The notes under the pieces: generated by a model | The model's database searches: none | Told to the model about the DNA's origin: nothing | Seen by the model: the letters and a program-made list of their open reading frames with translations, nothing else | Shown here: one piece after another, positions 8,321 through 24,557 of the stretch | How the letters are laid out: each line of letters opens with the position of its first letter | How positions within the stretch are numbered: position 1 is the first letter of the stretch | Translations under genes and position numbers: made by a program | NCBI GenBank assembly: GCA_036258175.1 | Contig: DATAEE010000263.1 | Location: forward strand, 1,489 to 65,488 | Reading direction: 5' to 3' | Origin: Vicinamibacterales bacterium | GTDB taxonomy: Bacteria; Acidobacteriota; Vicinamibacteria; Vicinamibacterales; 2-12-FULL-66-21 | DNA: 64,000 nt

Positions 8321-10093
8321 CTAAATGCTCAGGCCGGCCTGGACGAAGATCCGGTGCTGTTCGGCGAGATCGCGCGCTGCCGGAGTGATTAGCGATCGAT
8401 CACCGATCACAATTTTGCGTCCGTGCTTGATCGCCTGCTTGACGTCCTCCTCGCAGACAAAAGCCGCCGGTTTGTCGCCAACCGATACGGGTTGAGTAGA
8501 CTTTTCCGTCGTTTCGGCGACTCTCGGGGCCAATCCGGCCTTTCCCGGCGCGATTCCCTTCGTCGCGAGAAACTCGTCGATGCGCCGAGTCAATGAAGCT
8601 GCGCTTACGCCGCTCGAAACTGGCGCTGCCGGCGCTCGCAGCACGCTCTCGCGCTTGGGCGCAGCGGCCGCGGTGGGCGCTCCGCTTCCGGTGCGGCGCG
8701 CGATCTCTTTTCGCGGCGCCGCCGGCCTCACTTCGTACGCCAGGCGTTTGATGTTCAGGAGATGACGAGGCGAGATGTTGTCCGACGTGATGTTTCCGCC
8801 CCAGCCGCCACAACCGAGGGTCATTGCCGGATCGAGTCCAGTCGTCAGTCCGACGGACCCATGTGTCGTCGGCGTGTTGACGACGATTCGGCCCGCGGGC
8901 TTCCGGAGGCCGAACTGCAGGATCACCTCCTCGTTCCGCGAGTGGATCGACATGGTGTGCCCCATGCCGCCGTACCGCAGAATCTGGATGCACCGCTCGC
9001 AGCCCTGCTCCCAGTCCTTGACGACGTAGAACGACAGCACAGGGCAGAGCTTCTCAATCGACAGCGGATAGTCTCGGCCGACGCCTTGAAGCTCGGCGAT
9101 GAGGACCGTCGTGTCGGCTGGAACGGTCACGCCGGCCTTCTCGGCGATGTAAGCGGCCGACCGTCCAACCAGCGCCGGATTCGGAAGTCGCTGCGGGCTG
9201 ACGAGCACCTTACCGACGGCGTCGATTTCCGCCGGGCCAAGGAAATGCGCGCCATGGTTCTTGAACTCGCGCCGCACTTCTTCCGCGATCGCCTCGTCCA
9301 CGACGACGGAGTTCTCTGATGAGCAGAGAACGCCGTTGTCGAACGTCTTGCCCGTGATGATGTCGCGAACGGCTTTGTGGAGATCTGCCGACCGCTCGAT
9401 GTACGCAGGAGCGTTGCCCGGACCGACACCATAGGCAGGCTTGCCGGCGCTGTACGCGGCGCGCACGAGACCCATGCCGCCCGTGGCGAGGATGACAGCC
9501 ACGTCGCGATGTTTCATCAGCTCCTGCGTGCCTTCGATCGTGACAGTCTTCATCCAGTTGATTGATCCCTCGGGCGCGCCGGCGCGTAGCGCCGCATCCG
9601 ACATGACCTCCGCGACGCGGGTGATGCATCGGACTGCAGCGGGATGCGGGCTGATGACGATCGGACAGCGCGCCTTCAGCGAGATCAAGATCTTGTAGAT
9701 AGCCGTCGAGGTCGGGTTCGTAGACGGAATCACCGCAGCAACCACGCCAAAGGGTTCGGCGATTTCGACAATCTTCCGCGATTCGTCGCGCCCGACGACA
9801 CCGACGGTCCTGATTGGTTTGATGAAGCGGTAGACCTTTTCCGATGAGAACAGGTTCTTCTGAACCTTGTCCTCGACAACGCCATAACCCGTTTCGTCGA
9901 CGGCAAGCCTCGCCAAGGACTCGGCGGATGCGGTCGCTGCCGCCGCCATGGCGTCGATCAGGGCATCGACCTGCTGTTGGGAGAATTCCGCCAGTTGCGG
10001 CAGCGCCTGTTTGGCGCGCCGCGCGAGCATACGAGCCTCGTGAATCGACGTGAGGTCACGATCAGACTGAGCGGCGGTGGCTTCGGCCGGCAT
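8321..10093 (-). CDS. CoA-acylating aldehyde dehydrogenase (AdhE-N/EutE/PduP type) with a ~120-aa C-terminal extension
   Basis: VIPSTNPTST, ILATGGMGLV, catalytic GKTFDNGVLCSSENSVVV, GGMGHTMSIHS. After ~aa 470 comes an Ala/Pro linker, the amphipathic SAASLTRRIDEFLATKG, then FVCEEDVKQAIKHGRKIVIGDRSLITPAARDLAEQH. It lies 36 nt downstream of the BMC-H gene. Confidence 0.85.
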   Translation of the reverse strand: MPAEATAAQSDRDLTSIHEARMLARRAKQALPQLAEFSQQQVDALIDAMAAAATASAESLARLAVDETGYGVVEDKVQKNLFSSEKVYRFIKPIRTVGVVGRDESRKIVEIAEPFGVVAAVIPSTNPTSTAIYKILISLKARCPIVISPHPAAVRCITRVAEVMSDAALRAGAPEGSINWMKTVTIEGTQELMKHRDVAVILATGGMGLVRAAYSAGKPAYGVGPGNAPAYIERSADLHKAVRDIITGKTFDNGVLCSSENSVVVDEAIAEEVRREFKNHGAHFLGPAEIDAVGKVLVSPQRLPNPALVGRSAAYIAEKAGVTVPADTTVLIAELQGVGRDYPLSIEKLCPVLSFYVVKDWEQGCERCIQILRYGGMGHTMSIHSRNEEVILQFGLRKPAGRIVVNTPTTHGSVGLTTGLDPAMTLGCGGWGGNITSDNISPRHLLNIKRLAYEVRPAAPRKEIARRTGSGAPTAAAAPKRESVLRAPAAPVSSGVSAASLTRRIDEFLATKGIAPGKAGLAPRVAETTEKSTQPVSVGDKPAAFVCEEDVKQAIKHGRKIVIGDRSLITPAARDLAEQHRIFVQAGLSI

Positions 10094-10129
10094 TGGGGCT
10101 TATCGGCGCCGCCCGACCCAAGGTCGGGC

Positions 10130-10402
10130 CTACGATTTCTTGGGAATGATCTTCTCGACCTCGGCGTGCGGTCGCGGAATCACGTGGACCGATACGAGCT
10201 CGCCCACGCGTCGCGCCGCGGCAGCACCGGCATCGGTCGCGGCTTTCACCGCGCCGACATCTCCCCGGACCATGACGGTGACATAGCCGGCGCCGATGTA
10301 CTCTTTCGCGACGAGTACGACGTTCGCAGCTTTCACCATCGCATCGGCCGCTTCGACCGATCCGATCAAGCCGCGTGTTTCGATCAAACCGAGAGCTTCC
10401 AT
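10130..10402 (-). CDS. Bacterial microcompartment shell protein, single-domain BMC-H (PduA/EutM/CcmK class)
   Basis: [79 protein letters not shown] is the textbook BMC-domain pattern. ATG at 10402; the 155-aa ORF in the track is over-extended. Confidence 0.9.
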
Positions 10403-10437: not shown

Positions 10438-10478
10438 AGGCTAACATATTGCCGGAAGTGCGGCAACCGCAGTAAGAT
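10438..10478. promoter_or_regulatory. Divergent promoter region with inverted repeat TTGCCG-N6-CGGCAA
   Basis: Minus strand: TTGCCG (10466..10461), 17 nt, TAGCCT (10443..10438), upstream of the BMC-H gene. Plus strand: TTGCCG (10449..10454), 18 nt, TAAGAT (10473..10478). The two -35 hexamers form a 6-bp palindrome pair. Confidence 0.25.
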
Positions 10479-11382
10479 GCCGGGCTCGATGGACTTAAAC
10501 GTAGCGCGCGGTCTCCTCGTGGTCTGCGTGAGCGCCGGAGCGCTCGCAGGTTGTGCCCCGTCGGACAATCAGCCTCCGGTAGCGACGCCAACCGCAACGC
10601 TCAGCCGCTCGCGCATCCCAGTCGGCGCTCCGCTCGAGGTGACATACCGCTTCGACGTCGCACAGGGCACGAAGATCGATGGCAACTATCGGGTCTTTGT
10701 GCATTTCCTCGACAGCGAGGGAGAGCGGATGTGGGGAGACGATCACACACCGGTTCCCCCGACACCTCAGTGGACTCCCGGTAAGAGAGTCGAATACACG
10801 CGCCTGATCTGGTTGCCGATCTATCCCTACACCGGTGAAACACGTGTCCGCGTCGGGCTCTACGCGGACGATGGCAGCCGGCTTCCTCTGAGTGGCAACG
10901 ACTCGGGCCAGCGCGAATACGAAGTCGCGACGTTTACGCTGCTGCCGCAATCCGAGAACATCTTCCTCATATTCAAGGACGGCTGGTATCCCGCGGAGAC
11001 GCTGTCCGATCAGCCGAACCTGAGTTGGGAATGGACCAAGAAGGAAGCGACGCTCGCGTTCCGCAATCCGAAGCAGGACGTGACCTTCTTTCTCGAAGCG
11101 GACGGTCGAACTGACGTCTTTAACCCACCGCAGCGTGCGACGGTCGTCGTCAATGGGCAGCCGCTGCATACCGTAACGATGGAACGCGACCCGAGGCTGC
11201 ACCGGCTGCCTATCACCGGGGCGCAACTCGGCACGCAGGACATGGTGGAGCTCAAGATCCAGGTCGACCGCGCATTCACCCCGTCGGCCGTACCGACGGG
11301 CCAGCCCGGATACGGGACCGACACGCGGGAGCTGGGCATCCGCGTGTTTCACGCCTTCGTAGCCGCAGATGCACGCAAATAG
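10477..11382 (+). CDS. Hypothetical lipoprotein
   Basis: [30 protein letters not shown] is a signal peptide with lipobox Cys (alternative ATG at 10489). Coding-like composition; I recognise no family. Confidence 0.6.
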
Positions 11383-21314: not shown

Positions 21315-22348
21315 TCACGGGCACGTCCCGCTCGTCGGCCGCACTGTTACGGTGCGGGTTGCTACAGCCTCTTCCCCCGTCGTCGTAGTCACACGCACCC
21401 GCGCGGTTCTCGTACCCGTGTTCTCGTACGTATGGACGATGCGGTCCGAGACGGTTGAGGGCGGATCGAACGTGCCGTCGCCTTCGAAATCCCAATCATG
21501 CGTGAGCGGCCGGCCTGTGACATTCGACGACACGGCCCTGAACGTTATCGGCGCGCCGAGCAGCACGCACTCTGGCGTCGCGGTCAACGTGACCGTGAAT
21601 GGCACGGCGGGGAGAACGGTCACAACGGCGCTTGCCGTTCCGGTCACGCCTGCCGTCACTGAATGCGCGCGCACGGAGACAGTCTTCACCCCTGCGGTGT
21701 CGAACACAACACTGTGCGCGTTCGGCCTCGAGAGGAGTTCGAAATTCCCATCGCCGTCTTCATCCCAGTCGAACGACACGATTTGACCGGCGCCGTTCGC
21801 GGCGTGGCAGTCGCCGTGAAGACGAACGTCGTCTCGGTCGTTCCGGTTATGGGCGCGGCATCGAGCGTGACCTCGACGGAAGGCGCTGGCCGTGCTGGAG
21901 GAGGCACTGTTGGAGCGGGGACCGGCGTGGGCGGCGGCGGCGCTGGCGGCACAGGGTGAGGCACACCGCCAGGCGGCACATCCACGCTGACGGGTCGCTC
22001 GACGATGAGGCCTGGCGCCGTCGCCCGGATGATTGTGGACGTCGACAGAAACAGCCGCTGCGCGAACTCACCGTCTTCGTCGAGTTCCACAGGGTTCGGC
22101 GTCTCGCGCCCGTCGTTCACCAGCACAAGCCGCACGGCATCCGGCGCCACACGCATGCCGACATCGGTCGTTGCGCGCAGTTCGATATTGACTGGGTCGG
22201 CAGCGGGCAATCGATCCGGCGTTGCGTTCAGCGTGAGTGAGCGAACCGGGCCGAACTGATCAGTCGGCGGCGTCGGCCCATCGTCGCATCCCAGGCTGAT
22301 GAGGACCGAGAGGAGGCCGACGCCGCCGACGACTCTGGTTATCGCCAT
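21315..22348 (-). pseudogene. PKD-domain (lipo)protein interrupted by a 1-nt frameshift near 21797-21803 (true pseudogene or assembly error)
   Basis: ORF 21686..22348 (MAITRVVGGVGLLSVLISLGCDD..., Pro-rich linker, ...TTFVFTATATP) loses sense exactly where ORF 21315..21779, read in the -1 frame, continues the same PKD domain (ANGAGQIVSFDWDEDGDGNFE...). A second PKD domain follows (THDWDFEGDGTFD...IVHTYENTGTRTARVRV). Total length 1034 nt, not a multiple of 3. Confidence 0.6.
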
Positions 22349-22390
22349 GGCCGCTCCGGTTCATGCGAGAGCCGGGCCATGCGAGCACGT

Positions 22391-22426
22391 GATGCGGCGC
22401 TCGACGGATCGCGCTACGCGGATTGG
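22391..22426 (+). pseudogene. 36-nt relic of a pseudopilin 3-prime end in an intergenic gap
   Basis: gat gcg gcg ctc gac gga tcg cgc tac gcg gat tgg (DAALDGSRYADW) compared with 21242..21277 of the second pseudopilin (DTALDGSRYADW). 29/36 nt identical, 11/12 codons encode the same residue, and 5 of the 6 differing codons are synonymous. The stop is replaced by CAG. Confidence 0.4.
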
Positions 22427-22429
22427 CAG

Positions 22430-23743
22430 CTACCGGATGCTGCCCGTCGCCGTTACGTTGACACTCGCCTGACCCGTCCCTGTGGGCCCGGCCGCTTGGG
22501 TTACAACGACAGTAATCGTAAATGTGCCAATGGTCGTGTAGACCTTCGATGTCTGGTTCCCCGTAGTGGTAGCCGTTGTCCCGTCGCCGAAGTTCCAATC
22601 GTAGCGCACGATCGTCGAAGTCGCCCCGCTGACGATTGCGGTCAGGTTGACCTGTTGATTGATCGCCGGAACCGCGTCGGAGACATTAACAACCACGCCT
22701 GGCGGTTGCCCCGGCAGGATCGTAATGTCGGTCGCTACGGTCTCCTGATCGCCTGTCGACTGCGTCGCGGTCGCGCTGACTTCGTACGTGCCTGCGACCC
22801 GATACGTGTGTTGAATCGTGGTCGAACCGCTGATCGCTCCGAGCGACCGAGCCTCGCCGTCCCCGAAATCAATGCGGACATTTGTGATGTTCGCCGTCGC
22901 GGCGACCGCGACGGTGAACGTCGCCGGCAGCCCTTCTGACGGCGGGGTCGCTGGCCCGGTAAGTGTCAGCCCGCTGCGCGGGCGCAAGCTGACCGTGATC
23001 TTACCTTCTGCAGCGCCGGATCGCGCCACGACATCCGCACTCGCATTCGCCTGCAGTGTCGCGACGGCGATTCCATTGTTGTCCGTATTGGCAGTCGATG
23101 GCGTGATGTTGCCCGCCGTCGTGCTGAACGTTACAGGCGCGCCGGAGACCACCGAGCCTTCTGCGTCCTCGACTCGCGCGGAAATCTGACTCGTACCTCC
23201 GACGGCGGGAAGCTGCGCCGGACTCGCTGAAAGAATGACTCTCGATGACGCGGCAGAACCAACCCTGATCGCGAGGCTCGCGGATCGGGCGCCGCCGGAG
23301 AACGCAACCACGGTCGCGGTTCCAGATTGACCAGTCGACGTGAGCCGAACGCTCGCCTGCCCGTTGTGTGTGCGCGCCTCCGCAGGCTCCAGACGTCCCA
23401 GCGTCGTCGTAAACGTGATGACAGTGCCGTTGTGGACTGGGGTGCCGGTGCCGGGCGTGCCAGGCGTTGGCGTCGGAGTCGTCGGAGTCGTCGGTGTGCC
23501 GGGCGTAGGAGGCGTCGGAGTCGGAGTTGTCGGTGTGCTCGGAGCGGCTCCAGCCTCGATGGCAATCGCCGTTATATCCACAGAGCCGTTCAGCGGCAGA
23601 ACCATGCTCGTCGAGAACAACGAGATGACGGTGCCTTGCGGCGCCAAAAGGGGCAGCTTGTCGCAGGAGCCGCTCGCGATTGCTCCGAGGGCTGCGACGA
23701 CGGCAAGCGCCAGACGGCTGCGAAGGCGTGCGTGTGCTACCAT
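22430..23743 (-). CDS. Exported Big_1 (invasin-like Ig) + 2x PKD domain protein with Pro/Thr linker
   Basis: MVAHARLRSRLALAVVAALGAIASGSC signal. PTPTPPTPGTPTTPTTPTPTPGTPGTGTP linker. Big_1-like segments (NGQASVRLTSTGQSGTATVVAFSG; NNGIAVATLQANAS). PKD motifs (VRIDFGDGEA...HTYRVAGTYEV; VRYDWNFGDGTT...KVYTTIGTFTITV). Alternative ATG at 23770. Confidence 0.75.
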   Translation of the reverse strand: MVAHARLRSRLALAVVAALGAIASGSCDKLPLLAPQGTVISLFSTSMVLPLNGSVDITAIAIEAGAAPSTPTTPTPTPPTPGTPTTPTTPTPTPGTPGTGTPVHNGTVITFTTTLGRLEPAEARTHNGQASVRLTSTGQSGTATVVAFSGGARSASLAIRVGSAASSRVILSASPAQLPAVGGTSQISARVEDAEGSVVSGAPVTFSTTAGNITPSTANTDNNGIAVATLQANASADVVARSGAAEGKITVSLRPRSGLTLTGPATPPSEGLPATFTVAVAATANITNVRIDFGDGEARSLGAISGSTTIQHTYRVAGTYEVSATATQSTGDQETVATDITILPGQPPGVVVNVSDAVPAINQQVNLTAIVSGATSTIVRYDWNFGDGTTATTTGNQTSKVYTTIGTFTITVVVTQAAGPTGTGQASVNVTATGSIR

Positions 23744-23768
23744 GGATACTCTTAAGATATTACGGTCC

Positions 23769-24557
23769 ATGTACTTACGAGGTCAAGCACGGAGAGCGGC
23801 GGGTTCCAGGACGCGCAGGAATCCGGCCGGCTACGCGATGGCGGCCTTGCTGGTCGCGATCGCCGTGCTGACCATCATGTTGTCGGTCGCGATGCCCGTT
23901 TGGCGCCATGAAATGCAGCGAGAACGGGAAGCCGAGCTCGTATTCCGAGGCGAGCAGTACGTCCGCGCGATTGACCTGTTTCAGCGCAAGTACGCCGGCG
24001 CTTTGCCGCCGACAATCGATCTCCTTGTCACCGAGCGCTTTCTTCGGAAGAAGTACAAGGACCCGATGACTGAGGACGGTGAGTTCCGGGTCATCGCCGC
24101 CGGTGCGCAACAACAGCCCGGATCGCCGCAGCCGGGCGGACCCGATGCTCCCCCGGGCCAGCAGCCTCAGCTGCGCGCGACGGTTCAACCGCCCACGTCG
24201 GCGTTCGGACAGAACCGACCTGGTGCGCAACCGTCGGTCGGCGCGGGCATCATTGGCGTCGCGAGCAAGAGCAAGGAAAAGTCGATTCGGCTCTACAAGG
24301 GCCGGAGCAAATACGACGAGTGGCAATTCATCTTTGCCAGCATCGGCGCGCGTCCGGGCGCGCCGGGCCAACAGCCGAATCGGCCTGGACAGCAAAACCT
24401 GCCTGGCATACGTCCCGGTTTTCCGCGTCCCGGTCAAGGACAGCCCGGCATGCCGGGACAACCCGGACCGGGAGATCCGCTGCGGCGTCGTCCAGGCATG
24501 AATCCGCCGGTCGTCAAGCCCGGAACCTCGGGCACGGGTCAACGTCCTCCCGGCTAG
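23769..24557 (+). CDS. Atypical GspG-like pseudopilin lacking Glu+5, with Gly/Pro/Gln-rich insert and tail
   Basis: MYLRGQARRAAGSRTRRNPAG|YAMAALLVAIAVLTIMLSVAMPVW, then REAELVFRGEQYVRAIDLFQRKYAGALPPTIDLLVTERFLRKKYKDPMT and YKGRSKYDEWQF (parallels the DGxxYxDW ends of the other two). The C-terminal ~70 aa is PGQ-rich. Alternative ATG at 23742. Confidence 0.55.
   Translation: MYLRGQARRAAGSRTRRNPAGYAMAALLVAIAVLTIMLSVAMPVWRHEMQREREAELVFRGEQYVRAIDLFQRKYAGALPPTIDLLVTERFLRKKYKDPMTEDGEFRVIAAGAQQQPGSPQPGGPDAPPGQQPQLRATVQPPTSAFGQNRPGAQPSVGAGIIGVASKSKEKSIRLYKGRSKYDEWQFIFASIGARPGAPGQQPNRPGQQNLPGIRPGFPRPGQGQPGMPGQPGPGDPLRRRPGMNPPVVKPGTSGTGQRPPG

Follow-up and report, generated by a model that had tools for sequence, protein, structure and literature searches.

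The 64,000-nucleotide stretch of DNA analysed here (the window; positions 1,489 to 65,488 of contig DATAEE010000263.1, from a Vicinamibacterales bacterium) encodes on its reverse strand a bacterial microcompartment (BMC) hexameric shell protein (BMC-H) and, directly 3' of it, a coenzyme A (CoA)-acylating aldehyde dehydrogenase (AldDH). We propose, with a probability of roughly 0.85, that this gene pair is a co-transcribed satellite operon of an ACI-type metabolosome, located on a Vicinamibacterales chromosome, and that its AldDH is recruited by a C-terminal tail. The proposition is supported by the presence in the AldDH of the ACI-specific C-terminal encapsulation peptide (EP) followed by a domain of ~50 aa, and by relatives that belong to the Vicinamibacterales (subdivision 6). 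We do not place it higher because it is from the published census of BMC loci (Sutter, Melnicki, Schulz, Woyke & Kerfeld, 2021, Nat Commun 12:3809; PMC8217296) that a main locus in the same genome is deduced. The features of the pair are the following, the predicted structures being those of AlphaFold2 (AF2) with its per-residue confidence score (pLDDT).

10130..10402, including the stop codon, (-) strand: BMC-H hexamer shell protein, 90 aa, matching PF00936 over its full length.
10094-10129, (-) strand: BMC-H/AldDH spacer of 36 nt, read from the sequence.
10111..10129, (-) strand: intercistronic inverted repeat of 19 nt with a 7-bp stem, GCCCGACCTTGGGTCGGGC, directly 3' of the BMC-H stop codon and inside the 36-nt spacer, read from the sequence.
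8321-10093, (-) strand: CoA-acylating AldDH, 590 aa, matching PF00171 and TIGR02518.
8729..10093, (-) strand: AldDH catalytic core, residues 1-455, without N-terminal extension (TIGR02518, PDB 3K9D).
9323-9325, (-) strand: codon of the catalytic Cys257, in FDNGVLCSSENS, placed by column alignment with E. coli EutE.
8606..8728, (-) strand: linker 1, residues 456-496, Pro/Ala-rich and variable, its length and sequence differing across 120 homologues.
8555..8605, (-) strand: EP-like amphipathic helix, residues 497-513, SAASLTRRIDEFLATKG, a conserved island between variable linkers.
8474..8554, (-) strand: linker 2, residues 514-540, variable, with an AF2 pLDDT below 50 over most of its length.
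8324..8473, up to the last codon, (-) strand: terminal α/β mini-domain of ~48 aa, structured residues 543-585, FVCEEDVKQAIKHGRKIVIGDRSLITPAARDLAEQHRIFV, delimited by alignment and AF2.

The shell protein matches PF00936 from end to end in the Pfam scan (E 4.3e-28, 97.5 bits); its best NCBIfam model is EutM (PRK15474, 128 bits), and E. coli EutM is 70% identical to it. It contains the standard IPRPH edge motif and the K(A)AN lysine motif and, having PRPH, is therefore not of the PRPF (H_royalpurple) variant. The second protein matches PF00171 (E 2.5e-28, Pfam scan) and, over residues 11-459, the acetylating acetaldehyde dehydrogenase model TIGR02518 with 618.8 bits, against a curated cut-off of 620.1. 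The model of the AdhE N-terminal half gives 566 bits and that of the EutE/PduP type (PRK15398) 252 bits. Among solved structures the closest is PDB 3K9D from Listeria (E 1.8e-150, residues 10-455), followed by 5J78 and then by AdhE N-terminal halves, with PduP (5JFL) at 2e-46. Cys257 falls in the same alignment column as the cysteine of E. coli EutE, and all homologues shown have it. A sequence-only reading of the same DNA had described a textbook 90-aa BMC-H followed, 36 nt further 3' on the same strand, by a CoA-acylating AldDH, with a LysM transglycosylase and an opposite-strand lipoprotein as neighbours, and had named a failed PF00936 match as one refuting case; the full-length match, the coordinates, the domain matches and the gene content are all in agreement with this description.

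The enzyme is ~135 residues longer than EutE/PduP-type enzymes and its solved relatives, which in the PDB sequence search cover no residue beyond position 465. The EutE/PduP type is a ~460-aa enzyme with an N-terminal EP, and the window AldDH differs from it in its 590 aa, its core beginning at residue ~10 and its C-terminal EP-like helix. Alignment of the best 120 full-length AldDH homologues (573-608 aa, 70-100% identity, 97-100% query coverage) resolves five parts: core, variable linker, conserved island, second variable linker and conserved terminal block. In the island, the residues L, D, F-L and G are invariant, and R and I are present in at least 90% of 20 sequences. Run on the final 144 residues together with an alignment of 20 sequences, AF2 places a helix at residues 498-511 (pLDDT 72-84); in the linker before it, the block-mean pLDDT is 47-58 up to residue 486 and climbs to 72 next to the helix. 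When hydrophobic moments were scanned on the Kyte-Doolittle scale, the helix of the mini-domain came out first and the EP did not stand out. The terminal mini-domain, which has 14 invariant columns in 28 sequences, is predicted to be a compact β-α-ββ-α-β fold (pLDDT 85-89), and it is present in all of 36 acidobacterial AldDH tails examined for it.

No further BMC gene was found in the 64 kb by tblastn with EutN, CcmL, PduN and PduA sequences. Pfam scans of ~50 window genes returned housekeeping functions only (type IV pilus (T4P)/type II secretion system (T2SS), exosortase, lytic transglycosylases, ChlI, Tol-Pal, SSB, PTS, MetK, LptFG, ParB, XerC and similar), with no match to PF03319, PF00596, PF00389/PF02826, PF06130 or PF00465. 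The ~6.6 kb that an overlapping contig adds past the right end of the window contain no BMC gene either, and encode the housekeeping proteins RapZ, HprK, RpoN, LptB and RecJ. On the Mb-size contigs that carry orthologous loci, PF03319, PF00596 and PF00389/PF02826 were not found within ±10 kb of the pair. The single-locus layout of EUT/PDU/GRM-like types, with BMC-H, the vertex protein BMC-P, a signature enzyme, AldDH, phosphotransacylase (PTAC) and alcohol dehydrogenase together, thus does not apply here, BMC-H and AldDH alone being present.

This arrangement is that of a catalogued BMC type. The census describes ACI as 125 loci found in Acidobacteria only, mainly in subdivisions 4 and 6 (PMC8217296). 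Its main locus has genes for a PF00596 class II aldolase with a C-terminal EP, a 2-hydroxyacid dehydrogenase (PF00389/PF02826), a triplet of adjacent BMC-P, a BMC-H and some small proteins of unknown function. The AldDh is without exception encoded on a satellite, and it groups with the AldDh of MIC3 (PMC8217296). According to Supplementary Data 2 of the same work, this AldDh has an EP close to the C-terminus and then an unknown domain of ~50 aa, a BMC-H is sometimes encoded with it, and a fourth BMC-P is occasionally part of the satellite. In the window, the host is acidobacterial, the PF00171 AldDH gene lies apart from any gene for a BMC-P triplet, aldolase or hydroxyacid dehydrogenase, the conserved helix at residues 498-511 is near the C-terminus and not the N-terminus, in an enzyme whose core starts at residue ~10, and residues 543-585 form the ~50-aa domain after it. 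The sequence-only reading was right that no other BMC gene can be recognised in the 64 kb, a result that now extends ~6.6 kb further to the right, and the comparison with locus catalogues that it recommended leads to a matching arrangement in Sutter et al (2021), the ACI type. It overlooked the AldDH tail, which is the diagnostic part of the gene pair, and its term 'orphan' does not hold for a layout that is the catalogued ACI satellite with its tail hallmarks. Of the two options it left, a satellite gains from the ACI tail and the subdivision 6 relatives, and a minimal pairing of unknown role loses to the published main locus type. The complete locus without its own AldDH, which it had named as a refuting case, is published as the ACI locus type but was not seen in this genome.

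The pairing of the two genes recurs in more than 40 fetched acidobacterial loci and in at least two unrelated flanking contexts, and is not a matter of chance. A protein search with BMC-H listed 120 matches, all 88-96% identical, and in all four of the context look-ups made a long AldDH adjoins. Those of the best 120 AldDH homologues that are named at NCBI are labelled Vicinamibacterales, and genome-scan loci with a BMC-H 85-92% identical to that of the window are titled 'Acidobacteria gp6' or 'Vicinamibacterales'. A recurrent synteny, with T4P/T2SS genes, SLT and lipoprotein on one side of BMC-H and AldDH and LysM-SLT and ChlI on the other, is present on contigs of 3.66 Mb and 1.91 Mb and on many others. 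We considered whether the pair is functionally linked to the lytic transglycosylases or T4P genes beside it and rejected this, as a Terriglobales metagenome-assembled genome (MAG) keeps the pair with entirely different flanking genes. The genome scan with BMC-H, which took one genome per species and gave 80 loci that were then searched by tblastn, places BMC-H with a long AldDH and the tail domain in gp6/Vicinamibacterales, gp5, Bryobacterales, Acidiferrales, Terriglobia, Sulfopaludibacter and Pyrinomonadaceae. All relatives with a tail-domain AldDH are Acidobacteria.

The satellites of the Pyrinomonadaceae also have a BMC-P, as predicted for ACI. In a member of this family (subdivision 4; OY970389.1, L062:9995-18022) the locus encodes BMC-H, a 618-aa AldDH, BMC-P, an ACT protein, a zinc-ribbon protein, DUF711 (PF05167), a 188-aa protein and a second BMC-H. 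The ACT and DUF711 pair is an odd content for a BMC locus, and a divergent response-regulator/histidine-kinase pair follows the locus.

Since the BMC-H stop and the AldDH start overlap by 4 nt in several relatives, the two genes form one operon. In some relatives this overlap stands in place of the intercistronic hairpin. A counterpart of the window's inverted repeat is predicted by RNAfold in the closest relatives (L002 and L003), and in the window's own 65-nt context the minimum-energy fold pairs the GCCCGACCTTGGGTCGGGC bases otherwise. Other lineages, including Terriglobales and Pyrinomonadaceae, have different, strong hairpins at the BMC-H/AldDH junction. It can be hypothesised that the junction hairpin could set the ratio of shell protein to enzyme. 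A scan for sigma-70 promoters and terminators remained at background level.

For the terminal domain of the AldDH, so far described as a ~50-aa domain of unknown function, profile comparison now shows a relationship to the H1/H2 region at the N-terminus of EutQ. Direct matches of the mini-domain are weak and fall on the C-terminus of TIGR02536 (Eut hypothetical protein, E 9.5e-5), on the PduM C-terminus and on positions 5-41 of the EutQ model (NCBIfam PRK15457, E 0.11). When AldDH-only tails are compared with five EutQ N-termini, hhalign gives a probability of 96.2% and an E-value of 2.4e-9, the aligned EutQ residues being 3-43. An iterated hidden Markov model (HMM), built from acidobacterial AldDH tails and one PTAC tail and run on the 22,033 open reading frames (ORFs) of the fetched loci, matches the N-terminal part of an EutQ-family protein from Eubacterium (E 9e-6) and a protein of 229 aa from a BMC locus (E 4e-5). 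Another protein of the EutQ family, BMC proteins that resemble flavoproteins and small proteins of SPU loci are matched more weakly. Residues 3-39 of E. coli EutQ are matched with E 0.0024, and residues 3-39 of EutT weakly with E 0.2. Carriers confirmed by Pfam are PTAC and Flavoprotein, both with the domain at the C-terminus, and EutQ, with the domain at the N-terminus. The part of Salmonella EutQ that binds the shell is residues 9-41 (H1/H2), and its residues 62-99 are those that bind cargo EPs (PMC12487888, Sci Adv 2025). From this homology and the shell binding of Salmonella EutQ, we propose that the ACI AldDH tail is an EP combined with a putative EutQ-like shell-docking module.

Outside AldDH, the carriers of the mini-domain are L063:5193-6215, L081:5984-6652, L079:10315-10890, L013:11087-11836, L022:13303-14076 and L172 (E. 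coli eutQ and eutT). PTAC/PduL and flavoprotein-like BMC proteins with N-terminal EPs have it at the C-terminus; EutQ-family cupins have it at the N-terminus, where E. coli EutT also shows it weakly (E 0.2). It looks like a portable BMC-specific module.

Tiny stand-alone proteins made of an EP-like helix and the mini-domain alone were also observed (P0422, P0424, P0436 and others). Those with the EP first have 77-83 aa, for example in a Handelsmanbacteria MAG, and those of SPU loci have ~120-135 aa and the reverse order, in which the domain precedes the EP (L119:7699-8082, L105:5054-5449, L160:9257-9667). These proteins look like minimal shell-cargo adaptors. Small domain proteins on long contigs that appeared to be stand-alone were rejected as frameshifted AldDH tails of long-read assemblies. 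In three ENA long-read contigs of 99-589 kb (L187-L189) the AldDH is called as two to three pieces, of 467-526 aa plus a 61-aa tail, a splitting that is likely due to homopolymer frameshifts. Through errors of this kind, protein databases come to contain 'stand-alone' tail-domain proteins that do not exist. A search with the tail-domain profile gave 653 matches, and among the 150 listed nearly all have the domain at the C-terminal end; these are mostly short fragments and therefore hold no information on architecture. A search with a mixed-carrier profile returned fragments of 31-83 aa only, many of them N-termini of E. coli/Salmonella EutQ or EutT that were already in the query profile, hence nothing independent.

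A further observation concerns four chromosomes of Candidatus Poribacteria (L011, L013, L016, L021), in which the BMC-H is 80-82% identical to that of the window and neither AldDH nor BMC-P could be detected in the surrounding ±10 kb. At least three of these loci (L011, L013, L016) have, adjoining BMC-H, a ~250-aa protein with a C-terminal mini-domain. In L013 this protein has, in addition, an EP-like helix at its N-terminus and matches flavoprotein weakly.

We propose the following mechanism. The BMC-H and AldDH genes would be co-transcribed, and BMC-H would supply the hexamers that tile the shell facets. The AldDH would be cargo and, with Cys257, NAD+ and CoA, would turn the aldehyde produced by the aldolase of the main locus into acyl-CoA inside the shell, which would keep the reactive aldehyde confined. 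Targeting would take place via the C-terminal tail in place of the usual N-terminal peptide: the EP helix (498-511) may join the enzyme to the cargo/shell assembly, and the mini-domain (543-585), as a homologue of the shell-binding H1/H2 region of EutQ, may dock it on the inner surface of the shell. The main locus that this mechanism calls for would lie elsewhere in the genome.

Several points weigh against this proposal. An ACI main locus was not seen in this genome, of which ~70 kb are visible, or in any genome with an orthologous pair. Among the 80 loci of the BMC-H scan there is none by tblastn, the loci being satellites in Acidobacteria and unrelated EUT/PDU/GRM/SPU loci elsewhere. A metagenome scan with BMC-P of the triplet clade also gave 80 loci, and those inspected are of the SPU type (RpiB and DeoC), with no ACI main locus. 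In nine context look-ups, nothing but satellites, SPU loci or housekeeping genes came up. The placement of BMC-H in the H_fuchsia clade and of AldDH in the ACI/MIC3 clade is putative, the latter with the far better fit of the core to TIGR02518 than to the EutE/PduP model (618.8 against 252 bits) as an indirect sign. With regard to the mini-domain, a single profile connects it only weakly to E. coli EutQ (E 0.0024 with Z = 22,033), and no solved structure resembles it: Foldseek with the tail model against the PDB gave none at E <= 0.001 (best E 0.13), and the PDB sequence search gave designed mini-proteins only (E >= 0.08). Furthermore, EutQ H1/H2 is proposed to bind at a EutM/EutL interface, and no EutL-type protein is described for ACI. 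Finally, the literature searched contains no experimental characterisation of an ACI BMC, including after the census.

That a main locus was never directly seen is what would be expected of a self-sufficient minimal shell-enzyme system, in which BMC-H forms sheets, tubes or an open scaffold, the AldDH docks by its tail and aldehyde is detoxified without BMC-P, aldolase or main locus. The absence of any other BMC gene within ~70 kb, the inheritance of the pair as a unit across different genomic contexts and the AldDH's own EutQ-like putative shell-binding module are also in its favour. We nevertheless regard it as improbable, although it is the strongest of the alternatives. The census gives ACI a main locus, with the AldDH-bearing loci as its satellites (PMC8217296). 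EPs and vertex proteins are features of closed shells, and the satellite of subdivision 4 includes a BMC-P, which links it to closed icosahedral shells. Moreover, BMC-H alone does not close a shell. A particular form of this idea, to which we give marginally less credence still, is that in Vicinamibacterales the pair would work without a main locus, the AldDH coating BMC-H sheets or tubes by EP and docking domain to form a vertex-less aldehyde-oxidising nanoscaffold, a minimal 'open' microcompartment.

Slightly further down the scale, and in our view quite unlikely, the pair could be a satellite of a BMC type other than ACI, for example MIC3-, HO- or SPU-like. The grouping of the ACI AldDh with that of MIC3 (PMC8217296) is consistent with this, as are the abundance of SPU loci in soil metagenomes and the related mini-domain that they have on a small protein. 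However, SPU and, by description, MIC3 hold the AldDH in the main locus, and the SPU AldDHs are ~50% identical to that of the window, with no match to the terminal domain. The taxon, the C-terminal EP and domain and the split layout are the stated hallmarks of ACI, and the confinement of the tail-domain relatives to Acidobacteria also argues against another type. The least credible explanation is an ordinary cytosolic acetylating acetaldehyde dehydrogenase (AdhE/EutE-like, fermentative or for ethanol oxidation) beside a stray or decaying BMC-H, with no compartment at all, for although the core is closest to acetylating acetaldehyde dehydrogenases and AdhE N-terminal halves and the neighbourhood is one of unrelated cell-envelope housekeeping, the intact BMC-H is conserved at 88-96% in hundreds of relatives from metagenomes, the pairing is kept across several named acidobacterial groups, some with overlapping stop and start codons, and the tail has an EP-like helix and a domain found, among identifiable proteins, on BMC-locus proteins.

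Around the pair, the divergent neighbour at window 10477-11382, (+) strand, 74 nt from the BMC-H start, is a predicted lipoprotein of ~301 aa with a LAGC lipobox and without Pfam match. A lipoprotein of 288-302 aa adjoins the pair in all Vicinamibacterales loci seen and is not found in the Terriglobales locus. At window 21315-23770, (-) strand, two to three ORFs occupy a stretch left empty by the codon-bias gene filter; they encode secreted proteins that have a linker rich in Pro/Thr and several Ig/PKD-like segments in repeat. The G+C content of the window is 62-71%, and Rfam and tRNA scans of it gave no matches.

The split ACI layout, including the unusual AldDH tail, was already catalogued in 2021, and the window is one more instance of it in a very abundant soil lineage. 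What is added here is the profile-based connection of its ~50-aa domain with the H1/H2 region of EutQ. ACI is a metabolosome whose substrate is still to be identified, in a phylum that is among the most abundant of soil, and a well-delimited example helps experimental design. The EutQ-like module is scattered, across many BMC types, over PTAC, EutT, EutQ, flavoprotein-like proteins and tiny proteins with an EP. If it serves generally to dock proteins on shells, it would add to the classical EP a second targeting device, and a portable one. In that case it would be useful for BMC engineering and for the recognition of cargo in uncharacterised loci.

At the level of known systems, the core of the window AldDH is closest to the EUT2-associated TIGR02518 enzymes 3K9D (Listeria monocytogenes) and 5J78, with which it shares the Cys motif and the CoA-acylating family. 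Their chains of 464-488 aa cover none of residues 466-590 and, unlike the window AldDH, are without C-terminal EP or mini-domain. The classic EutE/PduP type (PRK15398) has its EP at the N-terminus, and E. coli EutE is 32% identical to the window AldDH. The Salmonella/E. coli EutQ and the AldDH have in common that a flexible linker connects the EutQ-like module with a helical segment that takes part in cargo assembly. The module of EutQ is N-terminal and fused to a cupin acetate kinase, whereas that of the AldDH is C-terminal, and the H3/H4 segment of EutQ is the receptor of EPs, whereas the helix of the AldDH would be the EP itself. The fucose-rhamnose metabolosomes PVM/GRM5 follow the logic that is also proposed for ACI, in which a PF00596 aldolase makes the aldehyde and a CoA-acylating AldDH consumes it (PMC8217296). 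They differ from ACI in having AldDH, PTAC and shell genes in one locus, and no PTAC (PF06130) is listed for ACI. Obligately distal satellites, for example CcmK3/CcmK4 of beta-carboxysomes, are likewise shell paralogues encoded away from the main locus, presumably for separate regulation or stoichiometry, but these satellites contain shell genes only, and that of the window also has a core enzyme. The ACI satellite of Sutter et al (2021) shares with the window pair the subdivision 6 host, the distal AldDH, the C-terminal EP with the ~50-aa domain and the adjoining BMC-H with standard motifs. Its occasional fourth BMC-P has a match in the subdivision 4 relatives of the pair, and the two do not differ in any feature compared.

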